The position numbers were made by a program, and so were the translations under genes. Shown one piece after another: positions 1,158 to 63,131 of a DNA stretch of 64,000 bases. Each line of letters opens with the position of its first letter. The stretch's first letter is position 1. Origin of the DNA: an uncultured Eubacteriales bacterium (GTDB lineage Bacteria > Bacillota > Clostridia > Christensenellales > UBA1242); the NCBI GenBank assembly GCA_949878485.1, contig CATLAM010000005.1, forward strand, positions 23,499 to 87,498, in the 5' to 3' direction. Below the pieces are notes generated by a model that was not told the origin of the DNA, searched no databases, and saw nothing but the letters and a program-made list of their open reading frames with translations.

Positions 1158-1218
1158 GATAACTCCTGACATAACTTACGAAAATAAGATTGTAATTTAT
1201 AACAATTCGACAAACTTT

Positions 1219-1980: not shown

Positions 1981-2028
1981 AAAAACCTCCTTGCTTTATT
2001 ATATTAGTCGCTTGTCCAAAATATCTGT

Positions 2029-44787: not shown

Positions 44788-44818
44788 TAAAAGAAAAAAG
44801 ACATAAATATGTCTTTTA
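44788..44818 (-). terminator. Rho-independent terminator after pflA
   Basis: The minus strand reads TAAAAGACAT-attt-ATGTCTTTT followed by TTCTTTT. The stem overlaps the pflA stop codon. Confidence 0.6.
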
Positions 44819-45520
44819 ATCTTTAAGCAATTTTTCTAATTTTTGACATCTTTGTTTGTCCATTTCAGGAGTGTCTTCCAATCGATATTTGATGCCAAGT
44901 TTTTTATACTTTTCTTTAGCCATGGTGTGATATGGCAAAAGTTCAATTTTCTCAATGTTTTTCAATTTTTTTGCAAATTCTTTAAGTTTCAAAACACTTT
45001 CTTCATTATCGTTAAAGTTTGGAACAATGACTTGTCTAAGCCACATCTTTTTGTTTTTCTTTTGGCAGGCATCCAGAAACTTGGTAAACTTGCTGATATC
45101 TTTGCCGACCAAGTTTAGATATTTCTCTTTATCAAGTTCTTTAACATCTAAGATCACAAGATCACAAAAATCTAAAAGTTCATCATATCCATCCCCTTGC
45201 CCAGAAGTGTCAAGGCAAGTGTGAATGTTGTTTTGTTTGCAAAGTTTAAACAACTCAGTAACAAATTCCACTTGCAGAAGTGGCTCTCCACCTGAAACAG
45301 TTATTCCACCACCATTTTTAAAATATGGCTTATATCTCAACATTTTTGCAAGCAACTCTTCTGGCGTCATCTTTGTTTTGGAAAGGTTTGGGTCCCACAT
45401 TTCTGGATTGTGGCAATAAGCACATCGAATTGGGCAACCTTGCAAAAACACAACAAATCGCACCCCCGGTCCATCCACCAAACCCATCGTTTCAAAACTG
45501 TCTATATTTCCTTTAATCAT
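44816..45520 (-). CDS. pflA: Pyruvate formate-lyase activating enzyme (radical SAM)
   Basis: GLVDGPGVRFVVFLQGCPIRCAYCHNPE (CxxxCxxC cluster) and GGGITVSGGEPLLQ. It lies directly downstream of pflB. Confidence 0.92.
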   Translation of the reverse strand: MIKGNIDSFETMGLVDGPGVRFVVFLQGCPIRCAYCHNPEMWDPNLSKTKMTPEELLAKMLRYKPYFKNGGGITVSGGEPLLQVEFVTELFKLCKQNNIHTCLDTSGQGDGYDELLDFCDLVILDVKELDKEKYLNLVGKDISKFTKFLDACQKKNKKMWLRQVIVPNFNDNEESVLKLKEFAKKLKNIEKIELLPYHTMAKEKYKKLGIKYRLEDTPEMDKQRCQKLEKLLKD

Positions 45521-45609
45521 ATTTTCTCTTCTTTTAGTTTGTTATTTATAAAGAAAAAGAGCAAAATTGCTCGTTTTCTATTTTTATTGCCAAGATGATA
45601 AACGAATAT

Positions 45610-45690
45610 AAATTAACTTTTTAAATTTAAGTGTCAAAGTAAAAAGTTAATTTTCTTTCGCTTACCTTTCTTTTTTAAAAGAAAGATAAG
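45610..45690 (-). promoter_or_regulatory. Two hairpin-forming inverted repeats in the pflB-pflA intergenic region
   Basis: A perfect 13-bp inverted repeat AAATTAACTTTTT (45610-45622) / AAAAAGTTAATTT (45641-45653) with an 18-nt loop. A second hairpin at 45661-45690 (CTTACCTTTCTTTT / AAAAGAAAGATAAG, one G-U) abuts the pflB stop. Confidence 0.35.
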
Positions 45691-47928
45691 TTATCTTTTG
45701 CCATGGAATGTTCTTGCAATAACTTCTTTTTGATGAGCCTTAGACAAACGATTGAAGTTTACTGCATAACCTGAAACTCTGATTGTCAAGTTTGGATATT
45801 TCCAAGGATGATTCATGGCGTCAATCAAAAGTTCTCTATTTAAAACATTTACATTAAGATGTTGTGCATCTTGAACAAAATATCCGTCCAAAATGTCAAC
45901 AAGATTGCTTATTCTTGAACTTTCGCTGTGTCCCAACGCATCTGGAACAATGGAGAATGTGTTGGAAATTCCGTCTTGACAGCAACATCCATAAGGAATT
46001 TTAGCCACAGAGTTAAGGGAAGCCAAAGCACCAGAGCAATCTCTTTCATGCATTGGGTTTGCACCAGGAGCAAATGCCACTCCTGCTTTTCTTCCGTCAG
46101 GAGTTGAGCCTGTTTTCTTTCCATACATTACATTTGAAGTAATTGTCAAAAGTGACAATGTGTGCATTGCGTTTCTGTAGGTTTTTTGTTTCTTCAAACA
46201 ACCAAAGAAGAATTGAACTACATCAACACCAATTTGGTCAACTCTGTCATCATCATTTCCAAATTTAGGGAAATCTCCTTCAATTTCAAAGTCAACAATG
46301 ATTCCTCTTTCGTCTCTGATTGGTTTAACTTTGGCATATTTGATTGCAGAAAGTGAATCCGCAACAACGGAAAATCCTGCTGCACCAAAAGCCATAAGTC
46401 TTTCAACGCGAGTGTCAAGCAAAGCCATTTGACCTCTTTCGTAAGCATATTTGTCATGCATATAGTGAATGATATTCATGGCTTCAACATAAGTTTTTGC
46501 CACTTTTTCAAGTGTTTTTTGATAGTTTTTCCAAACTTTGTCAAATGAAAGCACTTCTTCAGTGTTTTTCGCCAAGCCTTCAACAACTTGAACGCCAGAA
46601 TTTTCGTCTACACCACCATTAAGAGAATAAAGGAGAGATTTAGCCAAGTTACATCTTGCACCAAAGAATTGCATTTGTTTGCCAACTTTCATGGCAGAAA
46701 CGCAACAAGCAATGGCATAATCATTTCCATAGAGTGGTCTCATTACATCGTCGCCTTCATATTGAATAGAGTCTGTCAAAATGGAAATTTTTGCACAGAA
46801 TTTACGGAAATTCAATGGAAGTTTTTCAGAATATAAAACAGTTAAGTTTGGTTCTGGAGATGCATCAAGATTGATAAGTGTTTGCAAATATCTGAAAGAG
46901 TTTTTTGTAACCAAACTCTTTTTGTCGTCAACCATTCCACCAATGCTTTCTGTAACCCATGTTGGGTCGCCAGCAAAGATTTCATCATAGTCAGGTGTTC
47001 TTAAATGACGAACAAGACGAAGTTTAATGACAAATTGGTCAACAAGTTCTTGTGCTTCTTCTTCTGTCAATGTGCCATTTTTGAAATCTCTTTCAAAATA
47101 GATGTCAAGGAATGTTGCAGTTCTTCCCAAACTCATGGCAGCACCATTGTTTTCTTTAACAGATGCCAAATAAGCAAAATATAACCATTGAACGGCTTCA
47201 CGGCTGTTTTGAGCAGGTTTTGAAATGTCAAATCCATATGATAAAGCCATTTCTTTGATTTGTCCTAATGCTCTGATTTGCTCGGAAACTTCTTCACGAA
47301 GTCTGATGCTTTCTTCATCACGAACATCAATTGTTTCCTTGTCATGTTTCTTTTCTTCAATCAAAACATCAATTCCATACAACGCAACGCGACGATAGTC
47401 ACCAATAATTCTGCCTCTGCCGTATGCATCAGGAAGTCCTGTCAAAAGACCAGCACTTCTTGCTCTTCTGATTTCTGGTGTGTAAGCATCAAATACGCCA
47501 TCATTATGAGTTTTTCTGTATTCCATAAAGTGACGACGGATTTCAGGGTCAAGTTCTCTGCCATATGCAGCCAAAGCCTTTTCGGCTGTTCTGAATCCAC
47601 CATAAAGGTTGACAATTCTTTTCAATGGTTGGTCTGTTTGAAGCCCAACAACCACTTCGTTCTTCTTGTCAATATAACCTGGTGCAAATGTGTTGATTCC
47701 TGAAACTGTGGTAAGTTCTACATCCAACAACCCCAATTTACTTTCTTTTTTAAGAAGTGTGTTGCATTTAGCCCAAACTTTTTTTGTTTTTTCAGTTGGT
47801 TCACACAAAAACTTATCGTCTCCGCGATATTCCTTAAAGTTGGAGAGAATAAAGTCAGACACATCAATTGACTCTTTCCACTTATCTCCTTTAAAACCTT
47901 TCCATTGTTCAAATTTTTGCTTTTCCAT
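45691..47928 (-). CDS. pflB: Formate C-acetyltransferase (pyruvate formate-lyase)
   Basis: 745 aa with active-site IACCVSAM and the C-terminal glycyl-radical motif [20 protein letters not shown]. Confidence 0.95.
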
Positions 47929-48595: not shown

Positions 48596-50368
48596 TTATT
48601 TTTCTTCAAATTGGCTGTTGTAAAGTTCGGCATAGAAACCGCCCTTTTTCAAAAGTTGGTTATGTGTTCCATTTTCAATGATGTCACCATCTTTAAGCAC
48701 CAAAATCATGTCGGCATTTTTAATTGTTGAAAGTCTGTGTGCAATAATGAAAGATGTGCGTCCTTCCATAACTTTATCCATTGCTTTTTGCAAAAGGATT
48801 TCTGTTCTGGTGTCCACCGAACTTGTTGCTTCATCCAAAATAAGCATTGGTCTGTCTTGAATCATTGTTCTTGCAATGGTAAGAAGTTGCTTTTGTCCTG
48901 CAGACAAATTGATGGCGTCATCGATAACTGTGTCATAACCCTTAGACAATGTTTGAATAAAGTGGTCTACTCCCACTTGTTTGCAAGCGTTGTAAATCTG
49001 TTCATCTGTGACATTTTCATTATTGTAACGCAAGTTTTCTTTAATTGTTCCTTCAAAAAGCCATGTGTCTTGCAAAACCATTCCAAACAATGCGTGCACA
49101 TTTTCACGGGTCATAAATCTGGTTGGAATGCCATCAATGCGAATATCCCCAGAATTGATTTCATAGAATCGCATCAAAAGGTTTACAAGCGTGGTCTTAC
49201 CTGCACCAGTTGGTCCAACAATAGCCACTTTTTGCCCAGCCTTAACTTTTGCTGAGAAATCTTTAATGATAATTTTATCTTGATTGTAACCAAACTGAAC
49301 ATGGTCAAACTGAACATTACCCTTGACATCTTCCACTTTCAAAACTGGATTTTCAAATTCACTGCTTTCCAAAAATTCAAACACACGATTTGCCGCAGCA
49401 GATGTCGATTGAAGTCTGGTTAAACTTTGTGCAATTTGAGAAAGTGGATTAGAGAATAATCTGACATAAATCATAAATGAAGCAATAACACCATAGCCTA
49501 AACCTTGTTTTGCAATCAGCACTGCACCAACAACGCAGACTGCAACATAGCCTAAGTTTCCCACAAAACTCATAACTGGCATCATAACACCAGAAATAAA
49601 TTGTGATTTCCAACCACTGAAAAACAGTTTTCTGTTGATTTTTCCAAACTCTTGAGATTGAGTTTCTTTGGCATTAAAAAGTTGAACGACATTATGTCCA
49701 GAATAGACTTCTTCAACATGAGCATTGATGTCCGCCAAGTTTTTCTGATTTTGGTCAAAATATTTTTGAGCACGAAGAAGGAAAATGCTGGCAAAAGCAA
49801 AGCCTAAGATTGTTGTTACAATTACTGTCAAAGCCATAATCCATTGAGTAACAAACATCATGATAAGCACACCGATAAACAAAATCACATTTGAAAGCAA
49901 GTTTGCAATGCTTTCATTCATGCTTTGACCAAGTGTGTCCACATCATTTGTGACACGGCTTAACACATCCCCATGAAGATGTGTGTCAAAATAATTAAGT
50001 GGCAAACGATTAATTTTTTTTGAAATGTCAGTTCTAAATCTTTTTACAACATTCTGTGTGACATTATTCATGATGAAATGTTGTAAATATTGCAATATTG
50101 CCATAGAAACATAGATTGCAACCAAAATAAAGCAAAGGTCAGAAATCTGTTTCAGGACATCCGCACCCATCAAGCCTTCTTGAATGTAATCTGTTACATC
50201 TCCAATCAAGTTTGGCCCTACAATTTGACATGCCACACCTATTGTGCCAAAAATCACTGATAAAATAAGTGGCCACATCTGAAAACGGCAATATCTGAAA
50301 AGTTTGCCCATGGAAGATTTGAAAGTGCCTTTTGTTTCTTTTTGTTTAACTGAAAATTTTCTTGCCAT
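48596..50368 (-). CDS. ABC exporter, fused permease/ATPase subunit (type I exporter, heterodimer partner)
   Basis: Six-TM N-terminal domain. Walker A GPTGAGKTT, signature LSAGQKQLL, Walker B MLILDEATS. The start is 1 nt after the upstream stop. Confidence 0.9.
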   Translation of the reverse strand: MARKFSVKQKETKGTFKSSMGKLFRYCRFQMWPLILSVIFGTIGVACQIVGPNLIGDVTDYIQEGLMGADVLKQISDLCFILVAIYVSMAILQYLQHFIMNNVTQNVVKRFRTDISKKINRLPLNYFDTHLHGDVLSRVTNDVDTLGQSMNESIANLLSNVILFIGVLIMMFVTQWIMALTVIVTTILGFAFASIFLLRAQKYFDQNQKNLADINAHVEEVYSGHNVVQLFNAKETQSQEFGKINRKLFFSGWKSQFISGVMMPVMSFVGNLGYVAVCVVGAVLIAKQGLGYGVIASFMIYVRLFSNPLSQIAQSLTRLQSTSAAANRVFEFLESSEFENPVLKVEDVKGNVQFDHVQFGYNQDKIIIKDFSAKVKAGQKVAIVGPTGAGKTTLVNLLMRFYEINSGDIRIDGIPTRFMTRENVHALFGMVLQDTWLFEGTIKENLRYNNENVTDEQIYNACKQVGVDHFIQTLSKGYDTVIDDAINLSAGQKQLLTIARTMIQDRPMLILDEATSSVDTRTEILLQKAMDKVMEGRTSFIIAHRLSTIKNADMILVLKDGDIIENGTHNQLLKKGGFYAELYNSQFEEK

Positions 50369-50369
50369 T

Positions 50370-52109
50370 TTACAATTCCTCCTTAGAGAGTTGTGACAAG
50401 GCGATTTCTTTGTAAACAGAACATTTTTTCAAAAGTTCATCATGCTTGCCAATTCCCACGACTTTTCCATTGTCTAAAACAATAATCTTGTCAGCATCTT
50501 TAATTGTGCCGATTCTTTGTGCGACAATAAACTTGGTTGCTTTGTTTGTATGCTTTGAAAGGGCTGTTCTAAGTTTTCTGTCTGTCTTATAGTCAAGTGC
50601 AGAAAAACTGTCGTCAAAGATGAAAATTTCTGGTTTTCTTGCAATTGCACGAGCAATTGAAAGTCTTTGTTTCTGTCCACCAGAAACATTTGTCCCGCCT
50701 TGAGAAATTTTGCTGTCAATTCCATCGCTCATGCGAGAAACAAAGTTGGTCGCCTGTGCAACACTTATGGATTTTTTAATAGTTTCGTCATCAGCATTAT
50801 TGTCACCGAAATCAATGTTTGACTTAACTGTTCCGCTGAACAAAACACCGCGTTGTGGAACATAACCAATCTTTTTGTTTAAATTGTCAAGTTTATAATC
50901 CTTAACATTTACACCATCAATCAGAATTTCGCCTTCTGTGCAATCATAAAGTCTTGGAATCAAATTAATAAGCGTGCTTTTTCCACTTCCTGTTGACCCT
51001 ATGAACGCCACTGTTTCGCCTTCATGTGCTTCAAAAGAAATGTTTTCCAAAACATATTCTTCCGCATCTGGATATTTAAAAGAAACATTTTTAAACACCA
51101 CTGATGCTGTGCTGTTTAAGTTTTCATCAACATATTCGCCAGAAACAATCATGTTTTCAGTGTCCAAAACTTCGTTTATTCTTTTTGCTGAAACAATTGC
51201 TCTTGGCATAAGTATGAAAATCATAATCAAAAGCATGAATGCCATAAGCACATTCATTGCATATGTTGTAAATGTCATCATGTTGGCAAAATCTGTTGGT
51301 GTCTTAACAACATAAGCACCAATCCAATATATGGCAAGGCTAAGTCCTGACATAATAAGTGTCATTCCTGGACCCAAAATGCTCATAACTCTGCCAGTAA
51401 ACAAATAAGCTTTTGTCAAATTGTTGTTATATTTAGAAAATTTTTCTTCTTGATATTCTTCCGCATTAGAAGCACGAATAACTCTTATACCTGTCAAATG
51501 TTCTCTTGTAACACGGTTAATGTCGTCAGTTAAAGTTTGAATCTTTTTAAACATAGGCATAGCCAAAACCACAATTATTGCAATCATAACAATCAATGTC
51601 AAAACTGCAACCCCAACAGCAGCAGACCAAGCTGTTGATATATTTAAAATTTTTAATATTGACCAAACCGCCAAAATTGGTGCTTTAAAAATTGCTTGCA
51701 TTCCCATTACAATGACCATTTGCACTTGAGTTATGTCATTTGTTGTTCTTGTAATCAAACTTGCTGTGGAAAACCTGCTTATTTCAGCCAAAGAAAAACC
51801 TTGCACTTTGTCATAAACTTTTTGTCTGATGTTGAAAGCAAAACGAGACGAGATGTTGGAAATTAAAAATCCATTAATAATCATTGCACCCAAACTGCCA
51901 ACAGCACAAGCCAACATATAACCACCATTGATTAATATGGTGTTTATGTCAACTTCCAAACCAAACTGCGATTTTTGAAGTTCGCCAATGATGCTTCCCA
52001 AATATTCTGGCATTCTTAAATCCAGCCAGACTTGCAAAACAACAAGACCAATCACAACAAGTAAAAAAACATAGTCTTGCCATTTTAAATTTTTAAGTAA
52101 TTTAAACAT
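50370..52109 (-). CDS. ABC exporter, fused permease/ATPase subunit (type I exporter, heterodimer partner)
   Basis: Walker A GSTGSGKST, signature VSGGQKQRL, Walker B IFIFDDSFSALD. ATG 52109 (GAGGTG upstream) is preferred over the track's GTG at 52115. Confidence 0.9.
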   Translation of the reverse strand: MFKLLKNLKWQDYVFLLVVIGLVVLQVWLDLRMPEYLGSIIGELQKSQFGLEVDINTILINGGYMLACAVGSLGAMIINGFLISNISSRFAFNIRQKVYDKVQGFSLAEISRFSTASLITRTTNDITQVQMVIVMGMQAIFKAPILAVWSILKILNISTAWSAAVGVAVLTLIVMIAIIVVLAMPMFKKIQTLTDDINRVTREHLTGIRVIRASNAEEYQEEKFSKYNNNLTKAYLFTGRVMSILGPGMTLIMSGLSLAIYWIGAYVVKTPTDFANMMTFTTYAMNVLMAFMLLIMIFILMPRAIVSAKRINEVLDTENMIVSGEYVDENLNSTASVVFKNVSFKYPDAEEYVLENISFEAHEGETVAFIGSTGSGKSTLINLIPRLYDCTEGEILIDGVNVKDYKLDNLNKKIGYVPQRGVLFSGTVKSNIDFGDNNADDETIKKSISVAQATNFVSRMSDGIDSKISQGGTNVSGGQKQRLSIARAIARKPEIFIFDDSFSALDYKTDRKLRTALSKHTNKATKFIVAQRIGTIKDADKIIVLDNGKVVGIGKHDELLKKCSVYKEIALSQLSKEEL

Positions 52110-52139
52110 TTTCACCTCGCTTAAACATAAAGTAAACTG

Positions 52140-52277: not shown

Positions 52278-55200
52278 CTATTTTAAAGTTGGGAAATTTT
52301 CAGTTAAATCCCAGATTTTGTCATCAAAATGGAATTTGGTTTCATAACCACTTATGTTTTTCCCACAATTTTTGGCAGAACCAAAACCCACTCTGTTTCC
52401 AAATACATTTAAAGGCAAACTTGAGAAACTGTTTTCAATTTCTCCGCCAAGCCTACCAACCAAACTGCCAACTTCTGACAAATCATTTGAAAACAAAATT
52501 TCAATGGTTGAATAAGAAGTTGAAACTTTGGTTTTGTTTATCTTATCTGAATCTACAATAAATTTTCCATAAAGTCCGCCAACACAACTTTCTCCAGAAA
52601 ATTGACTTGTTTCAATTTTTCCAACTGTGTAGTTGTTGGAAGAACCAAGTTCGCCATAGCCAACAAGACCACCGAATGACATTTCTTGTGCATTGCCAGC
52701 AATATTGGCGTCGATGTTGACATGGTTTAAAGAAACATCAATCTTTTTCTCAGAAAAACTTTCAACCAAACCAACAAGACCTCCAACTTTCATTTCTTGT
52801 GCGTTATTTGCAGTAAGGTTAATTTTCAAGTTTTCAACAGAATTCTTTTTAAGTTCTGAAGTCTTTTTGCCAGCCACAATTTTTCCTGCCATGCCACCAA
52901 AAGTTACATCTTTTGCATTGATTGAAATTTCTACAACAAGGTCGCATTGGCTGTTGACAATTTTTCCACCCTTTAAATTCCCAACAATTCCACCAAGCAC
53001 GGCATTTATGTTGCAATCAAACGCAATTTCTCCAGAAACAAAACATCTTTCAATTGTGCCAACATTTGTGCCTGCAATCGTTCCAAACAATGATAGATTT
53101 TTATATTTCTCATTAAACAAATTTACATTTAAATTCTTTATCTTTCCTGAGTTTGTTGCAAAAAGGCCATTGCTGTTGTTTGAAAATTTGACATTTTTAA
53201 GTGTTTTTCCATTTCCATCCAATGTTCCTGTGAAATTAACGCTGTGCCAGATGATGTCTTTTAAATCCAAATCTTCTTGCAAAACAAACGAAGCATGGCT
53301 GGCATTGTGCAATAAAGTGTTGAATTCATTAACATTGTTGATTTCCATTCTGACAGGAAAAGCATAGAATCCAAGCAACAATAAAACTATGTTTGCAAAC
53401 CCAATTCCCATTAGGCTTAAATTTATTATTTTCAGTTTTAAAGTTGACTTATGCTTATTTAAAATGAAATAAATTAAACTTATAATTGCCACAGCAACAG
53501 AATAGATAAGTGTGCAGACCAAGAAATTGTAACTGAAACTCATGTAAACTTCCTTAGGTGCAGACAATGTTGTGATTAAAAGCACTGTTGTGAAAAGTGC
53601 AGGAAAATAAACCAAAAATCCAAGTAAAAACCTTTTTAAAAAGACATCTTTTCTTAAGTCTTTAATTTTCTTTCTGTGTTTTTCTTCCTTAACTTCTTCT
53701 TTTTCGCCAAGCGCATTGTTTAAATTATTTTCTTTTTCCAACAAATTTGTTACATTGATGGACGCTTCAAAAGTTAAATCCAAATTTTTAAGGCGTTGTT
53801 CAATTCTTAAAACGACATCATTAAATTCATCATATTTATGAGTGTTTTCCAACGTATTAACATATTCTTCAAAAGGCTGAAGTTGCAAGCGATAATAATT
53901 TACACCACGCAAAACAGATGTTCCTTCTTGCTTTTCCATCTCCAACAAAATTTTATAGTTTCTATCCAAGAATTCATTGGTCTTAAAAATGTATTGAGCC
54001 TTATCTAAAGCATCTTCGTTAAATTCTTTCTTCTTGCCTTTAAACAAATTCATCTTGCTGACAATGCCAGCATATTTTTCTGATTGCTGTTCGTTGGCAA
54101 GTGTCAAAAGTGTTGACCACTCTGGCAACTGTGTAATTTTCACATTTGAAGTGATGAGTTCTTGTTCTTTACGGCAATGTGTCTTTGCCAAAATTAAAAA
54201 CCAAAACAATTCAGCATTTTTCTTGTCTTTGTTGATGGCAATGGAAATGTATTTTTCTGCTTGAGTAAAAAATTCTAAATCCAAAAACTTTTGTGCGATG
54301 TTTTTTAACATTAATACCAATCGCTTGGCGTCAGAAACATATGAAAGATAGAAATCAATTTGATTTTGACATTTTTCAAGGTCAATAAACGCCACTTCCA
54401 TAATCATATTTATAAGTCTGGAAATAAACTCATCGCGCTGAGCACCGTTTAAAAACTTAAACACTGCTTCCAACTCATTTCGATTTTGATATGTAAGCAA
54501 ATCGTTGTCAGTCTTAAAATGATCAAACAAAACAGCATAATTGCTTTCTGCGTGACCTTCATCTATTTCCAAAATCTTGTCATAATATTTTTTGTTGTCG
54601 CTTTTTTGTGCCAAATCAAAATAAAACTTGACAATTCCGTCCACATCAGACTTTTTGAAACATCTTAAAACCTTTTCAATAAGTTCTTCATTCATTGTTT
54701 CCACAGCCAAAGCCTTTGCACTGTCAATAAAGTGCTGACGGTTTGGACTGTTGTATTTTGCAAGATATAAAAGGTAGGTGTTGTAATAAATTACATCATG
54801 CAGTTTAATTACAAGATTTTCCATGTTGTCCACAAATTCTTCGGCAAAATCTTTTGAAGCAAACTGCAAAATTCGGTCTATCTCTACAGTGTTTTTGAAG
54901 TTGGAAATATTGTCAAAAAACTCTTCTTTGGTTTTAATCTGCTTGGAAAGCATAAGTTGAGCAAGAAGCAGTTCGGCATTGTTGGAATCATTTTCAAGTT
55001 CGGTCACCAAAACTTCTTCCGCTGTGGCAAAGTCGCCATTTTTTAAAGACAAATAAATCCATTTAATTTTGCCTTCTTCTGTGATTTCCACATTATCCAC
55101 ATGATAATGCCCAAGTTCAAGCGGGTTGATTGTTTCAGTGGCTATATATTTTTTCTTTTTAGGTTGCACTTTGTCAACCTTTATTGTGTCAATTTTGGCA

Positions 55201-56069
55201 ATTTCAGATGCCGACTTTCGCATCTCTTCGCCAACCATAACTTGAATGTCGAACAAGAGAGTGTCAGAGTTTAAATCCAAAATATTTTTGCAAGATTGCA
55301 GTTCTATTGGAAGTCTTGACATATCCAAATTTGTTTTGTCGGCAATTAAAATAAAACTTGTTTTCGTTTTCTTTCTTTGAGAGATGAAATATAAATATCT
55401 TTCATAAATGCTTCTAAATGTGCTGTTCATGTTGGCATCTGTCACAAACAACAACAAAACTTTTGCCCTTTGAAGAGCATTGAATGTCACTTCTTCCAAT
55501 TCTTCGTTGTCAGGAACGACATAATTTCTAAAATTATGTTCGTTCAGTTTGTCTGAGATGTCCGACAAAACATTTTGCACTTTGCTTGTGTCAACAGCAC
55601 TTATAACGACATCAACTTTGTCTTTAATCTCTCTGTAAGCATTTCTGATTTTGTCAACACGCTTGGCAAGCGCATTATAAGTCTTGGCTGTTTCACTTGG
55701 TGCAAGTTCCACTGCACGCTTGAAATCGCTGTTGTTGAAAAGAGATGGTATATCTTCGCCAAAAAAGCGTGGTCGTTTAGACATGTTTTTATTATTAGAA
55801 TACAAAACAATTTTGCTTGTCGCAAGCGCTCTGCCATAGAAGCCAGCAAAAGAAAAAGGAAACAGTAACAGAATTTTGTTAAATTCATCCACTGCTTCTT
55901 TAAATTTAAGGTCACGGAGTTTTTCTGTTGCACCAACAATTAAAACTTCTTCTTCCTTTGAAGCCTGTTCGTCCACATAGAGAGTCCCACAAAACATACA
56001 TTTAACCATGTTTTGCCCAACAACCTTATATTGTCTGCCCCCACAATTTTTACAAACACGCTCTTTCAC
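52278..56069 (-). CDS. 1263-aa multidomain membrane protein: N-terminal zinc ribbon, TIR-like (flavodoxin-like) domain, TPR-like helical repeats, 3 TM helices, C-terminal extracytoplasmic GLUG-repeat domain
   Basis: GTG start at 56069 (GGAGA upstream). CKNCGG...CMFCG zinc ribbon. VDVVISAVDTSKV...RAKVLLLFVTDANMNSTF suggests a TIR-like fold. TPR-like motifs AELLLAQLMLSK and AELFWFLILAK. Three TM helices at about 53350-53640. The ectodomain has FTGTLDGNGKTLKNV followed by VLGGIVGN, FGGMAGK, VGGLVGLV, FGGLVGYG, VGGLYGK (GLUG motifs). Confidence 0.8.
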   Translation of the reverse strand: MKERVCKNCGGRQYKVVGQNMVKCMFCGTLYVDEQASKEEEVLIVGATEKLRDLKFKEAVDEFNKILLLFPFSFAGFYGRALATSKIVLYSNNKNMSKRPRFFGEDIPSLFNNSDFKRAVELAPSETAKTYNALAKRVDKIRNAYREIKDKVDVVISAVDTSKVQNVLSDISDKLNEHNFRNYVVPDNEELEEVTFNALQRAKVLLLFVTDANMNSTFRSIYERYLYFISQRKKTKTSFILIADKTNLDMSRLPIELQSCKNILDLNSDTLLFDIQVMVGEEMRKSASEIAKIDTIKVDKVQPKKKKYIATETINPLELGHYHVDNVEITEEGKIKWIYLSLKNGDFATAEEVLVTELENDSNNAELLLAQLMLSKQIKTKEEFFDNISNFKNTVEIDRILQFASKDFAEEFVDNMENLVIKLHDVIYYNTYLLYLAKYNSPNRQHFIDSAKALAVETMNEELIEKVLRCFKKSDVDGIVKFYFDLAQKSDNKKYYDKILEIDEGHAESNYAVLFDHFKTDNDLLTYQNRNELEAVFKFLNGAQRDEFISRLINMIMEVAFIDLEKCQNQIDFYLSYVSDAKRLVLMLKNIAQKFLDLEFFTQAEKYISIAINKDKKNAELFWFLILAKTHCRKEQELITSNVKITQLPEWSTLLTLANEQQSEKYAGIVSKMNLFKGKKKEFNEDALDKAQYIFKTNEFLDRNYKILLEMEKQEGTSVLRGVNYYRLQLQPFEEYVNTLENTHKYDEFNDVVLRIEQRLKNLDLTFEASINVTNLLEKENNLNNALGEKEEVKEEKHRKKIKDLRKDVFLKRFLLGFLVYFPALFTTVLLITTLSAPKEVYMSFSYNFLVCTLIYSVAVAIISLIYFILNKHKSTLKLKIINLSLMGIGFANIVLLLLGFYAFPVRMEINNVNEFNTLLHNASHASFVLQEDLDLKDIIWHSVNFTGTLDGNGKTLKNVKFSNNSNGLFATNSGKIKNLNVNLFNEKYKNLSLFGTIAGTNVGTIERCFVSGEIAFDCNINAVLGGIVGNLKGGKIVNSQCDLVVEISINAKDVTFGGMAGKIVAGKKTSELKKNSVENLKINLTANNAQEMKVGGLVGLVESFSEKKIDVSLNHVNIDANIAGNAQEMSFGGLVGYGELGSSNNYTVGKIETSQFSGESCVGGLYGKFIVDSDKINKTKVSTSYSTIEILFSNDLSEVGSLVGRLGGEIENSFSSLPLNVFGNRVGFGSAKNCGKNISGYETKFHFDDKIWDLTENFPTLK

Positions 56070-56079
56070 AAATTCTCCG

Positions 56080-57234
56080 TTATTTTTTAGGTTTCTTTAT
56101 GTAACTTGAAACTTCGTTGTTATAGTCTTCAAATTCTTTCAATTCTTTCTTGGTCACACTTGGTGGCAAAACTTCCAACACTCTGTCGAAGTCTGCATTG
56201 GTCACCAAAATGACACTGTCTGTGGCAATTGCCTTTAAAAGTGGCTCATCTTTTGCACGGTCGCACAATTCTTCAATGTCTGCACCACTGTAAAGTTCTG
56301 TTTGCTCCACAACTCTGTTGACATCAAAATCTTTGTCAACTGGCACACCTTTAAGTGCCTTTTCAATCATAAATTTTCTGGCAGGAGCATCTGGCAATGG
56401 AAGATAAATCTTTTGAGAGAATCTTCCAGAACGCATTGCTGCACTGTCAATGTCCCATGGTCTGTTGGTTGCACCAAGAAGAAGCAAGTTTTGATTTCTT
56501 CCCGAAACACCATCTATTTGTTGCAAAAATTCGTTGACACGCTTGTCATTGTGTGTGTCAACACCACGCTTGCCAATTAAACTGTCCATTTCATCAATAA
56601 AAATTATGGCTCTGTCCTGCTTGTTGGCTTCTTGGAAAAGCGAATTAATGTTCTTTTCACTGTCGCCAACCCATTTGCTGACAATGTCAGAGCCTTTTAT
56701 GGCATAAAACTTTGCACCAACTTCATTGGCAATCGCTTTTGCAATCATGGTTTTACCTGTCCCTGGTGGGCCATATAAAAGCACACCACCACCAGTTTTC
56801 TTGCCATACATTTTATATTTATCTGGATATTTAATTGGGTTGATCATGCGAATAGTAATGGCTTTCTTGACATCATCAAGTCCTGCAACATCACTGAAAC
56901 TGATTTTAGGCACTTCTGCTGTTTGCCATTTCTTTACATCTTCATCTTCTTCAGAATTGTTGTTTTCACCCTTAGGTTTTTCGCTTTTTTCCACTTTGAT
57001 TGGTTTCTTGTTTAAATTGTCAGTAAGTTCCACCAAACGACGAGCCCTGTCCATTCTTACTTCTTTAAGTTTTCCTTGACTTTGCTTAGCCATTTGCATC
57101 ATTACTTCACTTGCCAACAAGAAATTTCTCTTGGCAAGAGCAATGTTCCCTTGTTCTTTTGCCTGCTTGCCTTTTTTCATGTAAAGGTCAAATTTGTCAG
57201 ACAAAACACTTATGCTTGTATTTTTATCATTCAT
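56080..57234 (-). CDS. Vps4-like AAA+ ATPase with an N-terminal MIT-like three-helix domain
   Basis: Walker A GPPGTGKT, Walker B IIFIDEMD, pore loop SDIVSKWVGDSEK (compare Vps4 SDLVSKW[ML]GESEK), second region of homology GATNRPWDIDSAAMRSGRFSQKIYLPLPD (compare Vps4 GATNIPW.LDSAIRRRFE.RIYIPLP). The N-terminus KKGKQAKEQGNIALAKRNFLLASEVMMQM...RMDRARRLVELTDNL is MIT-like. The start was refined to ATG 57234. Confidence 0.85.
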   Translation of the reverse strand: MNDKNTSISVLSDKFDLYMKKGKQAKEQGNIALAKRNFLLASEVMMQMAKQSQGKLKEVRMDRARRLVELTDNLNKKPIKVEKSEKPKGENNNSEEDEDVKKWQTAEVPKISFSDVAGLDDVKKAITIRMINPIKYPDKYKMYGKKTGGGVLLYGPPGTGKTMIAKAIANEVGAKFYAIKGSDIVSKWVGDSEKNINSLFQEANKQDRAIIFIDEMDSLIGKRGVDTHNDKRVNEFLQQIDGVSGRNQNLLLLGATNRPWDIDSAAMRSGRFSQKIYLPLPDAPARKFMIEKALKGVPVDKDFDVNRVVEQTELYSGADIEELCDRAKDEPLLKAIATDSVILVTNADFDRVLEVLPPSVTKKELKEFEDYNNEVSSYIKKPKK

Positions 57235-57252: not shown

Positions 57253-57849
57253 TTAGTTAATGTCAGATTCAATTTTCTTTCTAAGTTCTTCCATTTCTTT
57301 GTCGATGGATTCAGATGACATTTCATCTTGGCTTGCTTGTTCTTCAATAAACTTTTCAAATTCTTCATCTGACATTTCTTTGCCATCTCTTGCCTTTCCT
57401 TGATTATAGAAAGTTTCTTGGCTCATTTCCATAAAGTTATCCATTTGGTCAGCCTGAGTTTCAACAGCAGCCATTGCTTGTTCGAATTGATTTTGAATTT
57501 TGGCAAACTCTTTGGCATCTGCAAACTTTGTCATTTCCTTGCTGATGTCGCTCATGCCATGCAAAAATTCAGCAGTCATCATTGTTACATCTTTCATTTG
57601 TGCTGTGATTTCAAAATTCAAAAGCATTTCTTGAGCACGTTTTTGTTGTTGAACAGTCATCTTATAACCAGAAAGTGCCAAGTTATACTGAGCATCCAAA
57701 TCCTTTTGTTTTGCTTTTTTTGCAGCATCAATAAACACTTGTTTTTGTGCTTCAAGTTTGTTGATTTGCTTGTTCATCGAGTTGATTGTTCTTTTAATCA
57801 ACATTTTTTTCTCGATTGCCTTTTCTTCCTTAGATTTAAAAAGTCCCAT
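57253..57849 (-). CDS. ESCRT-III-like protein (Snf7/CHMP-like; PspA/IM30 superfamily is the alternative assignment), 198 aa
   Basis: MGLFKSKEEKAIEKKMLIKRTINSMNKQINKLEAQKQVFIDAAKKAKQKDLDAQYNLALSGYK... follows the CHMP/Snf7 helix alpha1-alpha2 hairpin pattern. The N-half is basic and the C-half is acidic (DGKEMSDEEFEKFIEEQASQDEMSSES), ending in an amphipathic helix DKEMEELRKKIESDIN. GGAGG RBS. Confidence 0.7.
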   Translation of the reverse strand: MGLFKSKEEKAIEKKMLIKRTINSMNKQINKLEAQKQVFIDAAKKAKQKDLDAQYNLALSGYKMTVQQQKRAQEMLLNFEITAQMKDVTMMTAEFLHGMSDISKEMTKFADAKEFAKIQNQFEQAMAAVETQADQMDNFMEMSQETFYNQGKARDGKEMSDEEFEKFIEEQASQDEMSSESIDKEMEELRKKIESDIN

Positions 57850-57852
57850 TTT

Positions 57853-58482
57853 TTATTCCTCCAATTTCGCTTTTTTCTTTTTTATTGTTTCCTTTGCAGG
57901 TTCTTCATAATCTTCTTGTGCTTGATATAAATCACGCTCGTCACTAAGTTGGTCTTCTTGTTCAAACATACTTAAAAGTTCTTCTTCCTGTTTTCCAACG
58001 CCATAAATAGGTTCGCTGACATCATAAGCCGCTTGCACTTCAGCAAACAAATCATCCGCACTTGTCAAAACATCTTCAGACTTTATTCTGGTTTGCAGTG
58101 CTTTGTTTAAAAACTTGGCAAGCCCAGTTTGGTCTTTCAAAAGTTCGCTGAGCGGAACTTTTGTCTGCGTTTTAAAGAAAGTGTTGCTGTCATAAGCGTC
58201 TTTAAGTTTGTTCATAAGGCGAATGTTGTAAAGCAAATACATTCCCCTTTCCATGCAAGTTTGTTTTTCTTCGTTTAAGTGGCTGATTTTCTTGGCATAG
58301 AAAAGTTGAAGTTCTTTATTTTTCTCTTTCTTTCCCTTTTCCTTTAATGCGTCAATCTCTTTCAACTTTTGAAAAACTTCCGCTTCCACTGTTCTTTCTT
58401 GTCTTTCCAATTCGCAAATGGAATTGACAAGGTCTTCTCTGTTAAGTTTTTTAAATTTATTTCTCTTAAATGGTAACCACAT
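57853..58482 (-). CDS. Second ESCRT-III-like coiled-coil protein (Snf7/CHMP4-6-like layout), 209 aa
   Basis: The start was refined to ATG 58482 (AAGGAG 5 nt upstream). LVNSICELERQERTVEAEVFQKLKEIDALKEKGKKEKNKELQLFYAKKISHLNEEKQ resembles the Snf7 alpha1-alpha2 hairpin. Acidic C-terminal region EEELLSMFEQEDQLSDERDLYQAQEDYEE followed by a Lys-rich tail. Confidence 0.55.
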   Translation of the reverse strand: MWLPFKRNKFKKLNREDLVNSICELERQERTVEAEVFQKLKEIDALKEKGKKEKNKELQLFYAKKISHLNEEKQTCMERGMYLLYNIRLMNKLKDAYDSNTFFKTQTKVPLSELLKDQTGLAKFLNKALQTRIKSEDVLTSADDLFAEVQAAYDVSEPIYGVGKQEEELLSMFEQEDQLSDERDLYQAQEDYEEPAKETIKKKKAKLEE

Positions 58483-58494
58483 AGTCACTCCTTT

Positions 58495-58848
58495 TTAAAA
58501 ATCATCGCCCGCATTGATTTTGTAAATGTTTTCCATCATGTCATCAAAACGGCGTTTTTGGTCTTTATCAGCATATTTCATGGCGTTTTCATATTCTGGT
58601 AAATAAATGGCAGTCTTATAATGAATGGCATTGTCTGTCAAATCATTTTCATTTGGCAATTGAAATTTGGCAAGCATCAACCCCCAGTAAGCATCTGCAC
58701 ATTTAGGGTCATATTGCAAAACAATTTCAAAACTTAGTCTTGCTTGTTCAAACATTTGGTCTTCCAAATTTAGATAACCAAGATTAAGTTCTTTCAATGC
58801 TTTTTCTTTATCTGCCACATTTGACGAAACTTGATATGTTCTTTTCAT
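58495..58848 (-). CDS. Small TPR protein (117 aa)
   Basis: ATG at 58848 overlaps the upstream stop (TAATG). LGYLNLEDQMFEQARLSFEIVLQYDPKCADAYWGLMLAK is a canonical TPR unit. The motif ADAYWGLMLAK recurs in the 1263-aa protein. Confidence 0.6.
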   Translation of the reverse strand: MKRTYQVSSNVADKEKALKELNLGYLNLEDQMFEQARLSFEIVLQYDPKCADAYWGLMLAKFQLPNENDLTDNAIHYKTAIYLPEYENAMKYADKDQKRRFDDMMENIYKINAGDDF

Positions 58849-59267
58849 TAAGCCTGTTCTTCCTTTTTGCGTTGAACGATGTATGCTTCCACTTCTTCCA
58901 ACAACCTTAAACAAGTTTCTTGAGTGTTGTCTTTTGCCACTGCAATTTTAAGGTCATCAAGTTTGGCTGCAAGTTTTACATCAACTGCCAAAGCCTTTTG
59001 GTTTGTTGTTGGGTTGAAGAATCTGATGTTGTCCTTAACTTCAACTAAACGATTGCAAAGTGTGTCGTTTCCGTTTGCATAAACAATAATACTTTCCACA
59101 TTTGCCACCATGCTTTCAATAGCCTTTTTGTTTTTCATAACGCCACGGCCACCAATGTCAAGTTTCTCGCCTTTCTTTCTGTCACCTTTAGAAAAATATT
59201 CTTTCCAGATGTAAAAGGCTGAAACACCTAAGATTAAAATCAAAATTACAATTAAAAATGCCAACAT
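58848..59267 (-). CDS. N-terminally anchored small membrane protein (139 aa), hypothetical
   Basis: TM LAFLIVILILILGVSAFYIW followed by a helical soluble part. AGGAGG lies 7 nt upstream and overlaps the TAG of the preceding gene. Confidence 0.6.
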   Translation of the reverse strand: MLAFLIVILILILGVSAFYIWKEYFSKGDRKKGEKLDIGGRGVMKNKKAIESMVANVESIIVYANGNDTLCNRLVEVKDNIRFFNPTTNQKALAVDVKLAAKLDDLKIAVAKDNTQETCLRLLEEVEAYIVQRKKEEQA

Positions 59268-59278
59268 AATTTTTCCTC

Positions 59279-60124
59279 CTATAATTTACTTCCACAAGAC
59301 GAGCAAAACTTTGCACCATCTGGATTTTCGGCTTGACAACTTGGACAATGGTTGTTGCCACAAACTTTCTTTCCGCAATTTGGACAGAATTTTGTGTTTT
59401 CGTCCAATGCCTGTCCACACTCTTTGCAAAAGAAACCATTTTCTGACTTTTCTTGACTTTTTGGATTTTTAAGTTCTTTAAAATGTGCTGAAAGTCTTTT
59501 ATGGTCATTTTCTTCTATTATAATGTTTGCAATGTTGAAAGAAAAAACCGCAATTCCATATTCATTCATAAGTTTTTGATTTAATTGAGTCAAAACTTTG
59601 GCAGAAACTTTTTTCTTTGTCAGTGAAAGTTGATTGAAACAAACCTTATTTGCTTCCGCAAATTGCATAACCACATCTTCCAAAACTGCAACCACATTTG
59701 ACTGCAATCTTTCTTGTAAGCCATCTGCAGTTAAATCATCAGCAACTCCAACAAGATATAAATAACATTTTCTTGGATCACCAATTTGCACTTCAAAGTC
59801 ACCACTCATTCCGACATGATAGTCTTCATCTAAAACGAAATCATAAAGCGTAAATCTCTGAGCCGTGCCCCACAAAAGTTTAAGTTTTGCAGTCTTAGAC
59901 ATAAACAAAACTTCCAAGGTTGAGCCTGCATCTTCCTTTTGGTCAACAAACGAATCAAGCCTGTATTTCCCAGATGACAAGGTTTGCAACATCTGTCCAT
60001 CTTTAACCAATATGGCATTGTGAGTTTCTGGAACGATTATTGTTTGCCTTATGTCCAAACTTTCCAACAAACATCTTGAAAAGAGTTTTTCATTACTTCC
60101 AGAAAAAGTAATAGTTTTTTCCAT
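59279..60124 (-). CDS. SPFH-fold protein (Band_7_1 / YdjI-like) fused to a C-terminal double zinc ribbon
   Basis: IIVPETHNAILVKDGQMLQTLSSGKYRLD...KLLWGTAQRFTLYD...VGMSGDFEVQIGDPRKCYLYLVG...LQERLQSNVVAVLEDVV...LMNEYGIAVFSFNIANIIIEEND matches the Band_7_1 pattern as I remember it. The C-terminus is FCKECGQAL..KFCPNCGKK..HCPSCQAENPDGAKFCSSCG (two CxxC-Xn-CxxC ribbons). Confidence 0.75.
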   Translation of the reverse strand: MEKTITFSGSNEKLFSRCLLESLDIRQTIIVPETHNAILVKDGQMLQTLSSGKYRLDSFVDQKEDAGSTLEVLFMSKTAKLKLLWGTAQRFTLYDFVLDEDYHVGMSGDFEVQIGDPRKCYLYLVGVADDLTADGLQERLQSNVVAVLEDVVMQFAEANKVCFNQLSLTKKKVSAKVLTQLNQKLMNEYGIAVFSFNIANIIIEENDHKRLSAHFKELKNPKSQEKSENGFFCKECGQALDENTKFCPNCGKKVCGNNHCPSCQAENPDGAKFCSSCGSKL

Positions 60125-60155: not shown

Positions 60156-60185
60156 ATTATAACAAAAATAAAATTAAAAAGGCAA
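60156..60185 (-). promoter_or_regulatory. Extended -10 promoter of the seven-gene operon (-35 TTGCCT, 18 nt, TGtTATAAT)
   Basis: The minus strand reads TTGCCT(60185-60180)-N18-TATAAT(60161-60156), with TG one base upstream of the -10. It lies about 30 nt upstream of ATG 60124. Confidence 0.5.
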
Positions 60186-60224: not shown

Positions 60225-60253
60225 TTGCAAAAATTAAAGAAATCTGCTAAAAT
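60225..60253 (+). promoter_or_regulatory. Putative promoter of the SDR gene (-35 TTGCAA, 17 nt, -10 TAAAAT)
   Basis: TTGCAA(60225-60230)-N17-TAAAAT(60248-60253), divergent from the operon promoter. Confidence 0.4.
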
Positions 60254-60275
60254 AATATGGCTTGGGAGATATGAT

Positions 60276-61070
60276 ATGAAAAAGATTGCCATAATTACTG
60301 GTGCATCATCTGGCATGGGTCAAAAATTTTGTTATGAAATAGACAAACTTGGCTTAGATGAAATTTGGGGAGTTGCCCTTAATACTGACCATGTTGAAAA
60401 AATGCAAAGCGAACTTAAAACTAAATTTAAATTCTTTTCTTTAGACTTGACTAAGGATGAAAGTTTTAAAACTCTTGAAGCAGAACTTAAAAAACAAAAA
60501 GATGTTTGTGTAGAGTGGCTTGTCAATGCCAGTGGCTATGGAAAATTTGGTCGATATGACGAAATTTCAATTGAAGCACAAATTGGCATGATTGACCTTA
60601 ATTGCAAAGGTTTGACACATCTTACACTTCTTGCCTTGCCTTTTATGAAAGAAGGTGGAAGAATTGTGGAGTTTGGTTCAATTGCCGCTTTTCAACCAAT
60701 ACCTTACATTGCGGTGTATGGTGCAACTAAGGCTTATGTGTTGTCTTATTCTCGTGCGTTAAACCGCGAACTTAAATCTCGCAAAATCAGCGTAACTTGT
60801 CTTTGCCCTTATTGGACAAAAACACCATTCTTAAACAGAGCAACAGATGTCAAAACCAAAGAAACCGTCATAAAGAAGTATGTTGCAATGTATGATGCCG
60901 AAAAGGTTGTAAAACGCGGGATGAAAAAAGCATTAAAACGCAAAGAAGTTGTGCTTTATGGTTTCAAAGCCAAGGCACAGACTGCCATGGTCAAAATTTT
61001 GCCACACAAGTGGATCATGTCAATCTGGGGAAAACAACAAAACTTTAAAAAGACTTATAAAGGAAGATAG
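60276..61070 (+). CDS. Short-chain dehydrogenase/reductase (SDR) family oxidoreductase
   Basis: The start was refined to ATG 60276 (GGGAG 7 nt upstream). TGASSGMG (TGxxxGxG), LVNASG (NNAG-like) and the catalytic YGATKAY (YxxxK). Confidence 0.88.
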   Translation: MKKIAIITGASSGMGQKFCYEIDKLGLDEIWGVALNTDHVEKMQSELKTKFKFFSLDLTKDESFKTLEAELKKQKDVCVEWLVNASGYGKFGRYDEISIEAQIGMIDLNCKGLTHLTLLALPFMKEGGRIVEFGSIAAFQPIPYIAVYGATKAYVLSYSRALNRELKSRKISVTCLCPYWTKTPFLNRATDVKTKETVIKKYVAMYDAEKVVKRGMKKALKRKEVVLYGFKAKAQTAMVKILPHKWIMSIWGKQQNFKKTYKGR

Positions 61071-61704: not shown

Positions 61705-62073
61705 TTAATTTCCTTCATACCTTTTAACCATTGTCCTTTCAGTTGCATTATTTTGCACAGAAGGACTTGCGTTATGGTTGTTGCCATTTATTATGTTTTG
61801 TGAAATTAAAGCGTCTTTCAATCCATTGATTGCAGACATCATTTCGCCGTGATTTTCTTCTGCTTGCATCTTCGCTTCTTTTGCTTTTCTTTCTTTTTCA
61901 ATATTATCAGCCAACGCGAGTATTGTGTTATCAGGAGCATTTCCTTGCTGCCTTTCAAACTTTTCCCTTGCTTCTCGTTGTTGGGCTTGTCTTTCTTGTT
62001 CTGCTTGCTCTTCAAGTTGTCTTGCCCTTTCATTGATTTTTCTCATATATTCTTCTTCTGCTGACATTTCCAT
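61705..62073 (-). CDS. Hypothetical charged coiled-coil protein (122 aa)
   Basis: GGGAGA RBS. An E/Q/R/K-rich helix (ARQLEEQAEQERQAQQREAREKFERQQ) followed by an Asn-rich tail. No recognisable family. Confidence 0.55.
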   Translation of the reverse strand: MEMSAEEEYMRKINERARQLEEQAEQERQAQQREAREKFERQQGNAPDNTILALADNIEKERKAKEAKMQAEENHGEMMSAINGLKDALISQNIINGNNHNASPSVQNNATERTMVKRYEGN

Positions 62074-63055: not shown

Positions 63056-63131
63056 GGGGGTATGGCTCAGTTGGTAGAGCACCTGCCTTGCAAGCAGGGG
63101 GTCATCGGTTCGAATCCGATTATCTCCACCA
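63056..63131 (+). tRNA. tRNA-Ala (anticodon UGC), CCA encoded
   Basis: Hand-folded cloverleaf: acceptor GGGGGTA/TATCTCC with the G3:U70 alanine identity pair, D stem GCTC/GAGC, anticodon stem CCTGC/GCAGG with loop CTTGCAA, T stem ATCGG/CCGAT with loop TTCGAAT, then ACCA. 76 nt. Confidence 0.93.

Follow-up and report, generated by a model that had tools for sequence, protein, structure and literature searches.

Two adjacent genes on the minus strand of a 64,000-nucleotide stretch of DNA from an uncultured Eubacteriales bacterium (Bacillota, Clostridia; contig CATLAM010000005.1, positions 23,499 to 87,498) encode helical proteins that we refer to as A (198 amino acids) and B (209 amino acids). 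This whole stretch is called the window below, and coordinates are counted from its first nucleotide. A first-pass annotation, made from the letters alone, had described the two proteins as divergent paralogues of the ESCRT-III superfamily. We identified the genes as part of an operon that also encodes an ATPase with an architecture of the Vps4/CdvC type and an SPFH protein. Considering the family profiles, the predicted folds and the gene order together, it is likely that A and B form the polymers at the core of a bacterial operon of seven genes that serves membrane remodelling of the ESCRT-III/Vps4 type.

Operon organization and conservation

Both open reading frames lie where the first-pass annotation had placed them, with the lengths, the MGLFKSK N-terminus of A and the peptides that it had quoted. 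They belong to a series of seven minus-strand genes that encode, in order, an SPFH protein, a 139-residue protein, a 117-residue protein, B, A, an AAA ATPase with an MIT-like N-terminal domain (MIT-AAA), and a 1263-residue protein. The gaps between the seven genes range from -1 to 18 nt, and the junctions are translationally coupled. The stop codon of the gene for the 139-residue protein overlaps the start of the next gene as TAATG, and the start of the 117-residue protein was set at this position. Gene B is separated from gene A (57253-57849) by 3 nt, and the GGAGGA ribosome-binding site of A lies inside the last codons and stop region of B. The longest reading frame of B extends from 57853 to 58488 with a GTG start. 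Because its homologues begin with MW(P/L)FK, and because an AAAGGAG ribosome-binding site occurs 6 nt before the ATG at 58482, we assign B to 57853-58482. The ATPase gene begins with ATG, preceded by AAAGGA. Of the promoter-like sites in the region, the best one (60156-60185, minus strand; TTGCCT, 18 nt, TG-TATAAT) is found just upstream of the SPFH gene and is the probable promoter of the operon, as judged by its match to the consensus only.

The database relatives of A (508) and of B (304) are all unnamed or 'hypothetical', and the close ones carry no precomputed Pfam domain. Given these numbers of relatives, a gene order that is kept in 80 genomes and the overlapping ribosome-binding site, A and B are real genes and not chance reading frames. 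The genomes are a set of species-representative Clostridia assemblies (metagenome-assembled genomes) in which the locus was located with an alignment of seven A sequences. The two genes occur in the same order in the 80 genomes, with protein identities to the window copies of 56-99% for A and 46-100% for B. The hosts, which include Candidatus Caccovivens and Candidatus Coproplasma, are uncultured Clostridia from the gut. When only loci with enough flanking sequence are counted, as in all linkage counts given here, all 69 Clostridia loci have the SPFH gene no more than 5 kb upstream of A, and B is upstream of A in 73 of 79. The ATPase gene follows A within 5 kb in 74 of 76 loci and within 150 nt in 54 of them. 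The order SPFH, B, A, AAA is thus conserved across the Clostridia.

The pairing of A with an MIT-AAA gene recurs in distant environmental loci. Scanning metagenomes with a distant clade of A, whose members are approximately 28% identical to the window protein, yielded 80 such loci. Of 41, 21 have an AAA gene no more than 5 kb downstream, and 19 of these match an MIT profile built from the Clostridia ATPases. Genes of the B family are found upstream in 15 of 45.

Some of the environmental loci are richer than the window operon (L092 4503-5790, L106 4237-5524, L098 4662-5909, L112 75-5093 and L117 6276-9725). These hold two tandem copies of B, two helical families of about 200 residues that we call C and D, a second AAA gene encoding 400-450 residues, and a conserved 242-residue protein that has no Pfam match. 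A Pfam scan of the environmental B-, C- and D-type proteins gave no match to Snf7. In a further locus, L138, two genes for membrane Ser/Thr kinases (2-3085 and 4902-7568) bracket the Snf7-like and MIT-AAA genes, and the downstream kinase consists of a Pkinase domain, a transmembrane segment and an FGE-sulfatase domain. This arrangement is reminiscent of archaeal ESCRT loci of the kinase-associated 'Main' clade (Makarova et al.).

Families and predicted folds of proteins A and B

The family of A was collected by a profile search over 1.84 billion cluster representatives, which returned 352 relatives at E <= 1e-3, and is represented here by an alignment of 84 diverse full-length members. Compared with the PDB, the family profile matches CHMP2A (E 4.4e-6), CHMP3 (4e-3) and CHMP1B (0.018), followed by CdvB, Vps24 and CHMP1A. 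No PspA or Vipp1 chain was matched, though the PDB library contains many. The Pfam Snf7 model (PF03357) is matched by 27 of the 84 members when they are searched singly, with a best E-value of 1.4e-9, and one relative, P0362, reaches 28.9 bits against the Snf7 cut-off of 27.3. The PspA_IM30 model (PF04012) is matched by none of the 84. Profile-profile comparison with hhalign relied on small reference alignments of CHMP/Snf7 and PspA/Vipp1 sequences, which Pfam or PDB searches confirmed. The A family aligns with the CHMP2A/CHMP3/CHMP1B set at 96.4% probability (E 1.2e-9) over 160 columns beginning at the N-terminal MxLF motif, and with the CHMP4B/Snf7/CHMP6/CHMP5 set at 82% (E 1e-5). The corresponding value for PspA/Vipp1 is 1.1%, with a score of 18.9 that is equal to background.

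Based on the family-profile matches in the PDB, the Pfam matches among its relatives and the hhalign ranking, A is by sequence comparison an ESCRT-III protein of the Snf7 branch, and the Vps2/Vps24/Did2 (CHMP1; 'A-type') class is the nearest to it. The first-pass annotation had placed A in the ESCRT-III superfamily, with PspA/IM30 as the alternative family. The superfamily is borne out and the alternative is rejected by the same comparisons: the check that had been proposed, Snf7 against PspA_IM30 profiles, comes out in favor of Snf7 for A when the family profile is used.

The AlphaFold2 model of A is nearly all helix (residues 7-48, 52-106, 112-151, 161-173 and 180-197). The helices fit a layout of an alpha1-alpha2 hairpin followed by alpha3 to alpha5, with a mean predicted local distance difference test score (pLDDT) of only 64. 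The best Foldseek matches of the model are CHMP1B, CHMP2A/3 and CdvB, all of them weak (E 0.3-0.5), and the predicted fold is in weak agreement with the Snf7 assignment. The model of B is likewise almost wholly helical, as the first-pass annotation had predicted for both proteins. The charge asymmetry that it described is also real. The N-terminal half of A has a net charge of +7 (pI 9.7) and the C-terminal half a net charge of -15 (pI 4.2; shuffle p = 0.005), and the halves of B carry +7 and -11 (p = 0.03).

The C-terminal end of the A family is a conserved amphipathic helix that follows acidic residues and has the consensus D-x-x-I-E-K-E-L-x-E-L-x-K-K-I. In A it corresponds to residues ~179-193, SESIDKEMEELRKKI, and fits five of the six positions of the MIT-interacting motif MIM1, for which we used the consensus (D/E)xxLxxRLxxL(K/R). 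The strict pattern is present in 17 of the 84 family tails compared with 1.1 expected from shuffled tails, an enrichment of about 15-fold, and 16 of 26 strict matches fall within the last decile of the protein. The helix is described here as a conserved, MIM1-like, putative MIT-interacting motif. The first-pass annotation had suggested that one protein of the pair recruits a Vps4-type ATPase; this idea is strengthened by the helix on A and by the MIT-AAA gene directly downstream.

Distant members of the A family have an unusual architecture in which an N-terminal Snf7-like domain is fused to another motor. The examples from the profile search are P0296, P0373, P0305, P0318, P0298, P0315, P0300 and P0308, and the fusion partners are either a RuvB-like AAA+ domain with a NERD nuclease domain or FtsK_alpha with an FtsK/SpoIIIE-type ATPase.

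Protein B is more difficult to place. It has an N-terminal MW(L/P)FK motif, a basic alpha1-alpha2 hairpin, an acidic C-terminal half and a conserved (D/E)(D/E)ELLxMFE segment. Iteration through the fetched loci gave a broad B family of 108 sequences, whose genes lie upstream of those for A-type proteins in many environmental loci. By hhalign, the broad family is related to family D of the environmental loci (90.5%, E 1.3e-6), as is a sub-family of B (95%). Family D in turn aligns with CHMP2A/3/1B over its full length (68%, E 5e-5, 189 columns). Compared directly with the A family, the broad B family gives 30% and a score of 30.5 over 159 collinear columns. Scores of the B family in such comparisons (30-47) are below threshold but exceed those of the controls (10-23), which were reversed profiles and 20 column shuffles for each pair; the control probabilities are <= 1% with the exception of one at 4.8%. 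X242, an unrelated family encoded nearby, reaches at most 0.5% against everything compared. At the level of sequence profiles B shows no similarity to PspA: B and PspA/Vipp1 give 0.5% by hhalign, no member of the B family matches PF04012, and the PDB profile search returned no PspA or Vipp1 chain.

The AlphaFold2 model of B, built with a 35-sequence alignment, contains helices at residues 15-52, 56-98, 111-128, 136-152 and 166-192. The first two form a hairpin predicted with a pLDDT of ~85-90. Among 350,542 PDB chains, the best eight Foldseek matches are all archaeal CdvB2 (filaments) or CdvB, with probabilities up to 0.97, and the next are Asgard ESCRT-IIIB, CHMP2A/3, Vipp1 and Ist1. The comparison of predicted structures proposed in the first-pass annotation thus recovers the alpha1-alpha2 hairpin in B at high confidence, with fold matches that are not significant for either protein. 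Based on the profile scores in excess of controls, the transitive path through family D, the hairpin and the CdvB2/CdvB fold matches, B is probably a highly divergent protein within the ESCRT-III superfamily.

We also considered that only A is an ESCRT-III protein and that B is an unrelated coiled-coil or other helical adaptor that functions as CdvA or some other recruiter does. The operon would then encode one ESCRT-III protein, an adaptor and an ATPase, and there would be no hetero-polymer of two paralogues. Consistent with this, profiles of B built from 25 sequences (Clostridia loci) or 36 sequences (with environmental ones added) match neither Snf7 nor PspA in Pfam or the PDB, hhalign against the canonical Snf7 sets gives only 0.4-23%, the Foldseek E-values are 0.13 or greater, and the C-terminal half of the model has a pLDDT of 45-64. 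However, B resembles ESCRT-III proteins in size, in its N-terminal hydrophobic motif, and in having a basic hairpin and an acidic tail. Additionally, its profile alignments are full-length, collinear and well above the reversed and shuffled controls, the best fold matches are all to ESCRT-III proteins, and the intermediate family D connects it to CHMP2A/3/1B. We therefore regard an unrelated adaptor as unlikely. The first-pass claim that both proteins fall within the ESCRT-III superfamily holds for A; for B it stands on profile scores under threshold, the transitive path, the hairpin and fold matches short of significance. Its further assignment of B to the Snf7/CHMP4-6 subclass is not demonstrated by the comparison with the canonical sets.

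The ATPase, the accessory proteins and the surrounding genes

The gene directly downstream of A (56080-57234, minus strand) encodes a 384-residue ATPase. The protein consists of an MIT-like three-helix domain (residues ~12-75), an acidic linker, a single AAA cassette and a C-terminal helix similar to Vps4_C. The NCBIfam CdvC model spans nearly the whole protein, with residues 12-375 aligned to positions 6-366 of 370 (E 2e-62). The NCBIfam CDC48 model scores 215 bits in its D2 region only, which is far below its cut-off. In Pfam, the AAA model is matched with an E-value of 8e-43, and AAA_lid_3 is matched as well. Vps4_C scores 23.8 bits on the isolated last 55 residues against a cut-off of 21.3, and 20.0 bits on the whole protein. 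The sequence retains intact catalytic motifs, with GPPGTGKT as Walker A, IIFIDEMD as Walker B and SKWVGDSEK (KWVG) as the aromatic pore loop 1. The N-terminal domains of 6 of 17 orthologous ATPases match Pfam MIT (best E 1.1e-4). A profile of this domain finds the MIT domain of a chitin synthase as its best PDB match (E 0.009) and that of VPS4A at E ~1, none of which is significant. Given the full-length CdvC alignment, the Vps4_C match, the MIT-like domain and the intact motifs, the architecture of the ATPase is, as far as sequence can tell, of the Vps4/CdvC type.

The first gene of the operon (59279-60124, minus strand) encodes an SPFH protein of 281 residues. It matches Band_7_1 (E 4e-13, 49.8 bits against a cut-off of 24), has no transmembrane segment and is thus expected to be soluble, and ends in a double zinc ribbon (Zn_Ribbon_1 4e-16, DZR 1e-9). 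The SPFH protein YdjI of B. subtilis likewise ends in a zinc finger; it binds PspA, which requires YdjI for recruitment to the membrane (PMC8581546). The likeness of the window protein to YdjI is one of architecture only (Band_7_1, no transmembrane segment, C-terminal zinc ribbons).

This likeness raises the possibility that the operon is a PspA/IM30-type envelope-stress system similar to pspA-ydjGHI, in which the AAA protein is a general unfoldase resembling Cdc48 or an ATPase with another substrate. The pspA-ydjGHI operon likewise combines an ESCRT-III-superfamily gene with genes for a soluble SPFH-zinc-finger protein and small membrane proteins (YdjG/H), and in B. subtilis these partners bring the polymer protein to the membrane. 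PspA and Vipp1 can also have N-termini of the MGLF type, and the AAA core scores slightly higher with the D2 domain of p97/Cdc48 than with Vps4. However, the A family is far closer to CHMP2A/3/1B than to PspA/Vipp1 in the hhalign comparison, and its profile retrieves none of the many PspA/Vipp1 chains of the PDB library. The ATPase carries an MIT domain rather than a Cdc48 N-domain and stays beside A in clades that are ~28% identical, and A keeps its MIM1-like tail. The window also has two polymer genes, one of them Snf7-type, together with the MIT-AAA gene, whereas PspA systems have no Vps4-like partner. We consider a PspA-type system improbable.

The remaining operon proteins have few recognizable domains. 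The 139-residue protein (58848-59267, minus strand), a candidate membrane anchor, has one N-terminal transmembrane helix (residues 2-20) by hydropathy and a cytoplasmic helical part; it is conserved in the Clostridia loci and has no Pfam match. The 117-residue protein (58495-58848, minus strand) is weakly TPR-like (TPR_16, E 0.018, below cut-off), and homologues of ~117-119 residues are found at the same position in the Caccovivens-like clade. The last gene (52278-56069, minus strand) encodes a membrane protein of 1263 residues, described from hydropathy and sequence motifs. It begins with a zinc ribbon of the form CxxC..CxxC (residues 6-27), continues with ~790 helical, TPR-like, cytoplasmic residues, and has three transmembrane helices (814-899) followed by a C-terminal domain of ~360 residues with GG[LI]VG repeats that is presumably external. 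No Pfam or NCBIfam model matches it. The gene is syntenic only in the Caccovivens-like clade, with 32-85% identity.

Two ABC exporter genes (ABC_membrane and ABC_tran domains; 48596-52115, minus strand) come after the operon, with a separate promoter-like site (52169-52140). These genes are syntenic with the operon across the Caccovivens-like clade, to which they are likewise confined, and a functional link to the operon is possible. On the other side, a short-chain dehydrogenase gene (60225-61070, plus strand) diverges from the promoter region and is syntenic in many Clostridia loci. A putative gene for a 122-residue, Q/E/A-rich, coiled-coil-like protein that has no Pfam match is found at 61705-62073 (minus strand). 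The chromosomal context is ordinary, with genes for pyruvate formate-lyase (745 residues) and its radical-SAM activase at 44816-47928 (minus strand). A tRNA-Ala(tgc) gene is present at 63056-63131 (plus strand), and an Rfam scan of the window found nothing beyond one tRNA.

That the operon is an anti-phage or other conflict system or belongs to a mobile element, with an Iet-like AAA protein and helical proteins that act as membrane-damaging effectors, is very improbable: the ATPase does match PADLOC IetA (133 bits) and NCBIfam IteA (114 bits), and the RuvB-NERD and FtsK-like fusions of distant A-family members are architectures frequent in conflict systems, but the IetA score is below those of CdvC and CDC48 (211-215 bits), no IetS-like protease is present, the other six operon proteins match no PADLOC model, 2.9 million viral contigs (IMG/VR) contain no relatives, GC content is uniform with housekeeping genes on the flanks, and synteny is stable across 80 species, unlike that of typical defence islands.

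Proposed function and relation to known systems

Several observations weigh against our interpretation of the operon as an ESCRT-III/Vps4-type system. Searched alone, A has no match to Snf7 or PspA_IM30 in Pfam (E <= 1) and no meaningful match in NCBIfam or the PDB, and B alone matches nothing meaningful in Pfam (including Snf7 and PspA_IM30), NCBIfam or the PDB. No sequence comparison involving B reaches conventional significance, E is 0.13 or more for all its fold matches, and the mean pLDDT is 64-65 in both AlphaFold2 models. In the tail of A, the arginine at position +6 of MIM1 is replaced by glutamate. The ATPase scores 211 bits with the CdvC model, far under the curated cut-off of 650. 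By BLAST against provisional reference sequences, the AAA core has 41% identity to yeast Vps4 and the same identity to p97 D2, with p97 scoring slightly higher. PDB searches with the whole ATPase and with its C-terminal third returned lists filled by p97 variants. The MIT domain of the window ATPase alone has no Pfam match, and as a result the support for this domain is only moderate. Finally, about half of the distant metagenomic loci have no adjacent AAA gene, and most of the contigs have no known taxonomy, although one carries the bacterial marker PriA.

Even so, we favor the interpretation that A and B form the polymer of an ESCRT-III/Vps4-type system. According to this model, the 139-residue single-pass protein, and perhaps the 1263-residue protein too, would hold the YdjI-like SPFH protein at the membrane. 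The SPFH protein would mark a site on the cytoplasmic face and recruit or nucleate B and A, as YdjI does for PspA. The two proteins may bind the membrane through their N-terminal hydrophobic and basic motifs and basic hairpins, open, and co-polymerize. The MIM1-like tail of A could then dock onto the MIT domain of the ATPase, and the ATPase hexamer would thread subunits through its KWVG pore, turning over the polymer and driving membrane repair, constriction or scission. The YdjI-like partner makes membrane maintenance or repair the most likely cellular role, and vesicle release or fission during division or sporulation is also possible.

The operon shares features with archaeal ESCRT (Cdv) systems, in which one or more Snf7-family genes lie beside a gene for a single-cassette MIT-AAA protein and more than one ESCRT-III paralogue is present, as is probably the case here. 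The best fold matches of B are to CdvB2 and CdvB. In addition, the euryarchaeal 'Meth_adaptin' ESCRT loci encode a protein with SPFH, coiled-coil and zinc-ribbon regions (Makarova et al. 2024, PMC10936438), and an SPFH protein with a zinc ribbon is therefore common to both. However, the host here is a bacterium of the Clostridia, and the tail of A is MIM1-like. CdvA, winged-helix ESCRT-II-like and adaptin-appendage proteins were not detected in the window operon; its accessory set consists instead of the small TPR-like protein, the single-pass protein and the large protein with zinc ribbon, three transmembrane helices and external repeats.

Alignment of the A family with the eukaryotic Vps2/Vps24/Did2 (CHMP2/3/1) proteins extends from the N-terminal MxLF motif through alpha5, and CHMP2A is the best PDB match. 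A shares with them the basic N-terminal half, the acidic C-terminal half and a C-terminal amphipathic helix with five of six MIM1 positions. The ATPase resembles Vps4 in its MIT domain, KW-G pore loop and Vps4_C helix. However, sequence identity is ~15-18%, the arginine of MIM1 is replaced in A, B cannot be assigned to Snf7, Vps20 or Vps60, and no ESCRT-0, -I or -II components are present.

Reviews describe bacteria as having no clear Vps4 homologue and tending to have a single ESCRT-III gene of the PspA/Vipp1 type (PMC7615534, PMC7619361), and another paper assigned Snf7-type proteins to archaea and eukaryotes and PspA-type proteins to bacteria (PMC8281802). Evolutionary scenarios for ESCRT rest on this dichotomy, with a PspA-like protein assigned to LUCA and Vps4 as an archaeal innovation. 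Occasional bacterial Snf7 homologues have been noted by Ravi et al. 2024, who also reported that a VPS4-like MIT-AAA gene was transferred to five Gram-negative phyla, where 'snf7 is displaced' by a TPR and 6TM protein (PMC11237479, Text S2.2). The window operon similarly has an MIT-AAA gene beside one for a large TPR-like transmembrane protein, and the 1263-residue protein is similar in general layout only. However, the operon described here is found in Bacillota, and the Snf7-family genes directly upstream of its ATPase gene are missed by the Pfam Snf7 model, as is also the case in the distant metagenomic loci. A literature search found no description of the Clostridia system, although absence from the searchable literature is no proof of novelty.

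The operon appears to be a bacterial module of the ESCRT-III/Vps4 type whose accessory set is its own. The first-pass interpretation is largely borne out for A and is plausible for B. That two ESCRT-III-like genes upstream of a Bacillota ATPase gene escape the Pfam Snf7 model suggests that VPS4-like genes in bacteria may have Snf7 partners that went unnoticed. More tentatively, and with considerable doubt, the coupling of Snf7-type ESCRT-III proteins to MIT-AAA ATPases might not have been invented by archaea or eukaryotes, and could be a widespread, overlooked bacterial machinery that escapes standard Snf7 models and uses ATP to drive membrane scission or repair. Bacterial VPS4-like genes reported to have lost snf7 would then keep divergent Snf7 partners. 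If true, the origin or exchange of the ESCRT-III/Vps4 couple would be moved outside the archaeal stem, and a simple bacterial model would be gained.

A conserved bacterial operon that combines a Snf7-type protein, a second ESCRT-III-like subunit and an MIT-AAA ATPase would qualify the dichotomy on which these evolutionary scenarios rest, and the pairs in distant environmental loci add weight to this. It would also raise the question of ancient inheritance versus transfer between domains. The finding gains weight from the adjoining Vps4-like ATPase and YdjI-like SPFH genes, and the locus ties the SPFH-PspA partnership of Bacillus to the archaeal ESCRT loci that contain SPFH proteins. Comprising two subunits, a single ATPase and a recruiter of the SPFH type, the system would be a compact one for the study of Vps4-type turnover in ESCRT-III remodelling, and it would allow one to ask what task such a machine performs in a walled bacterium that uses FtsZ.

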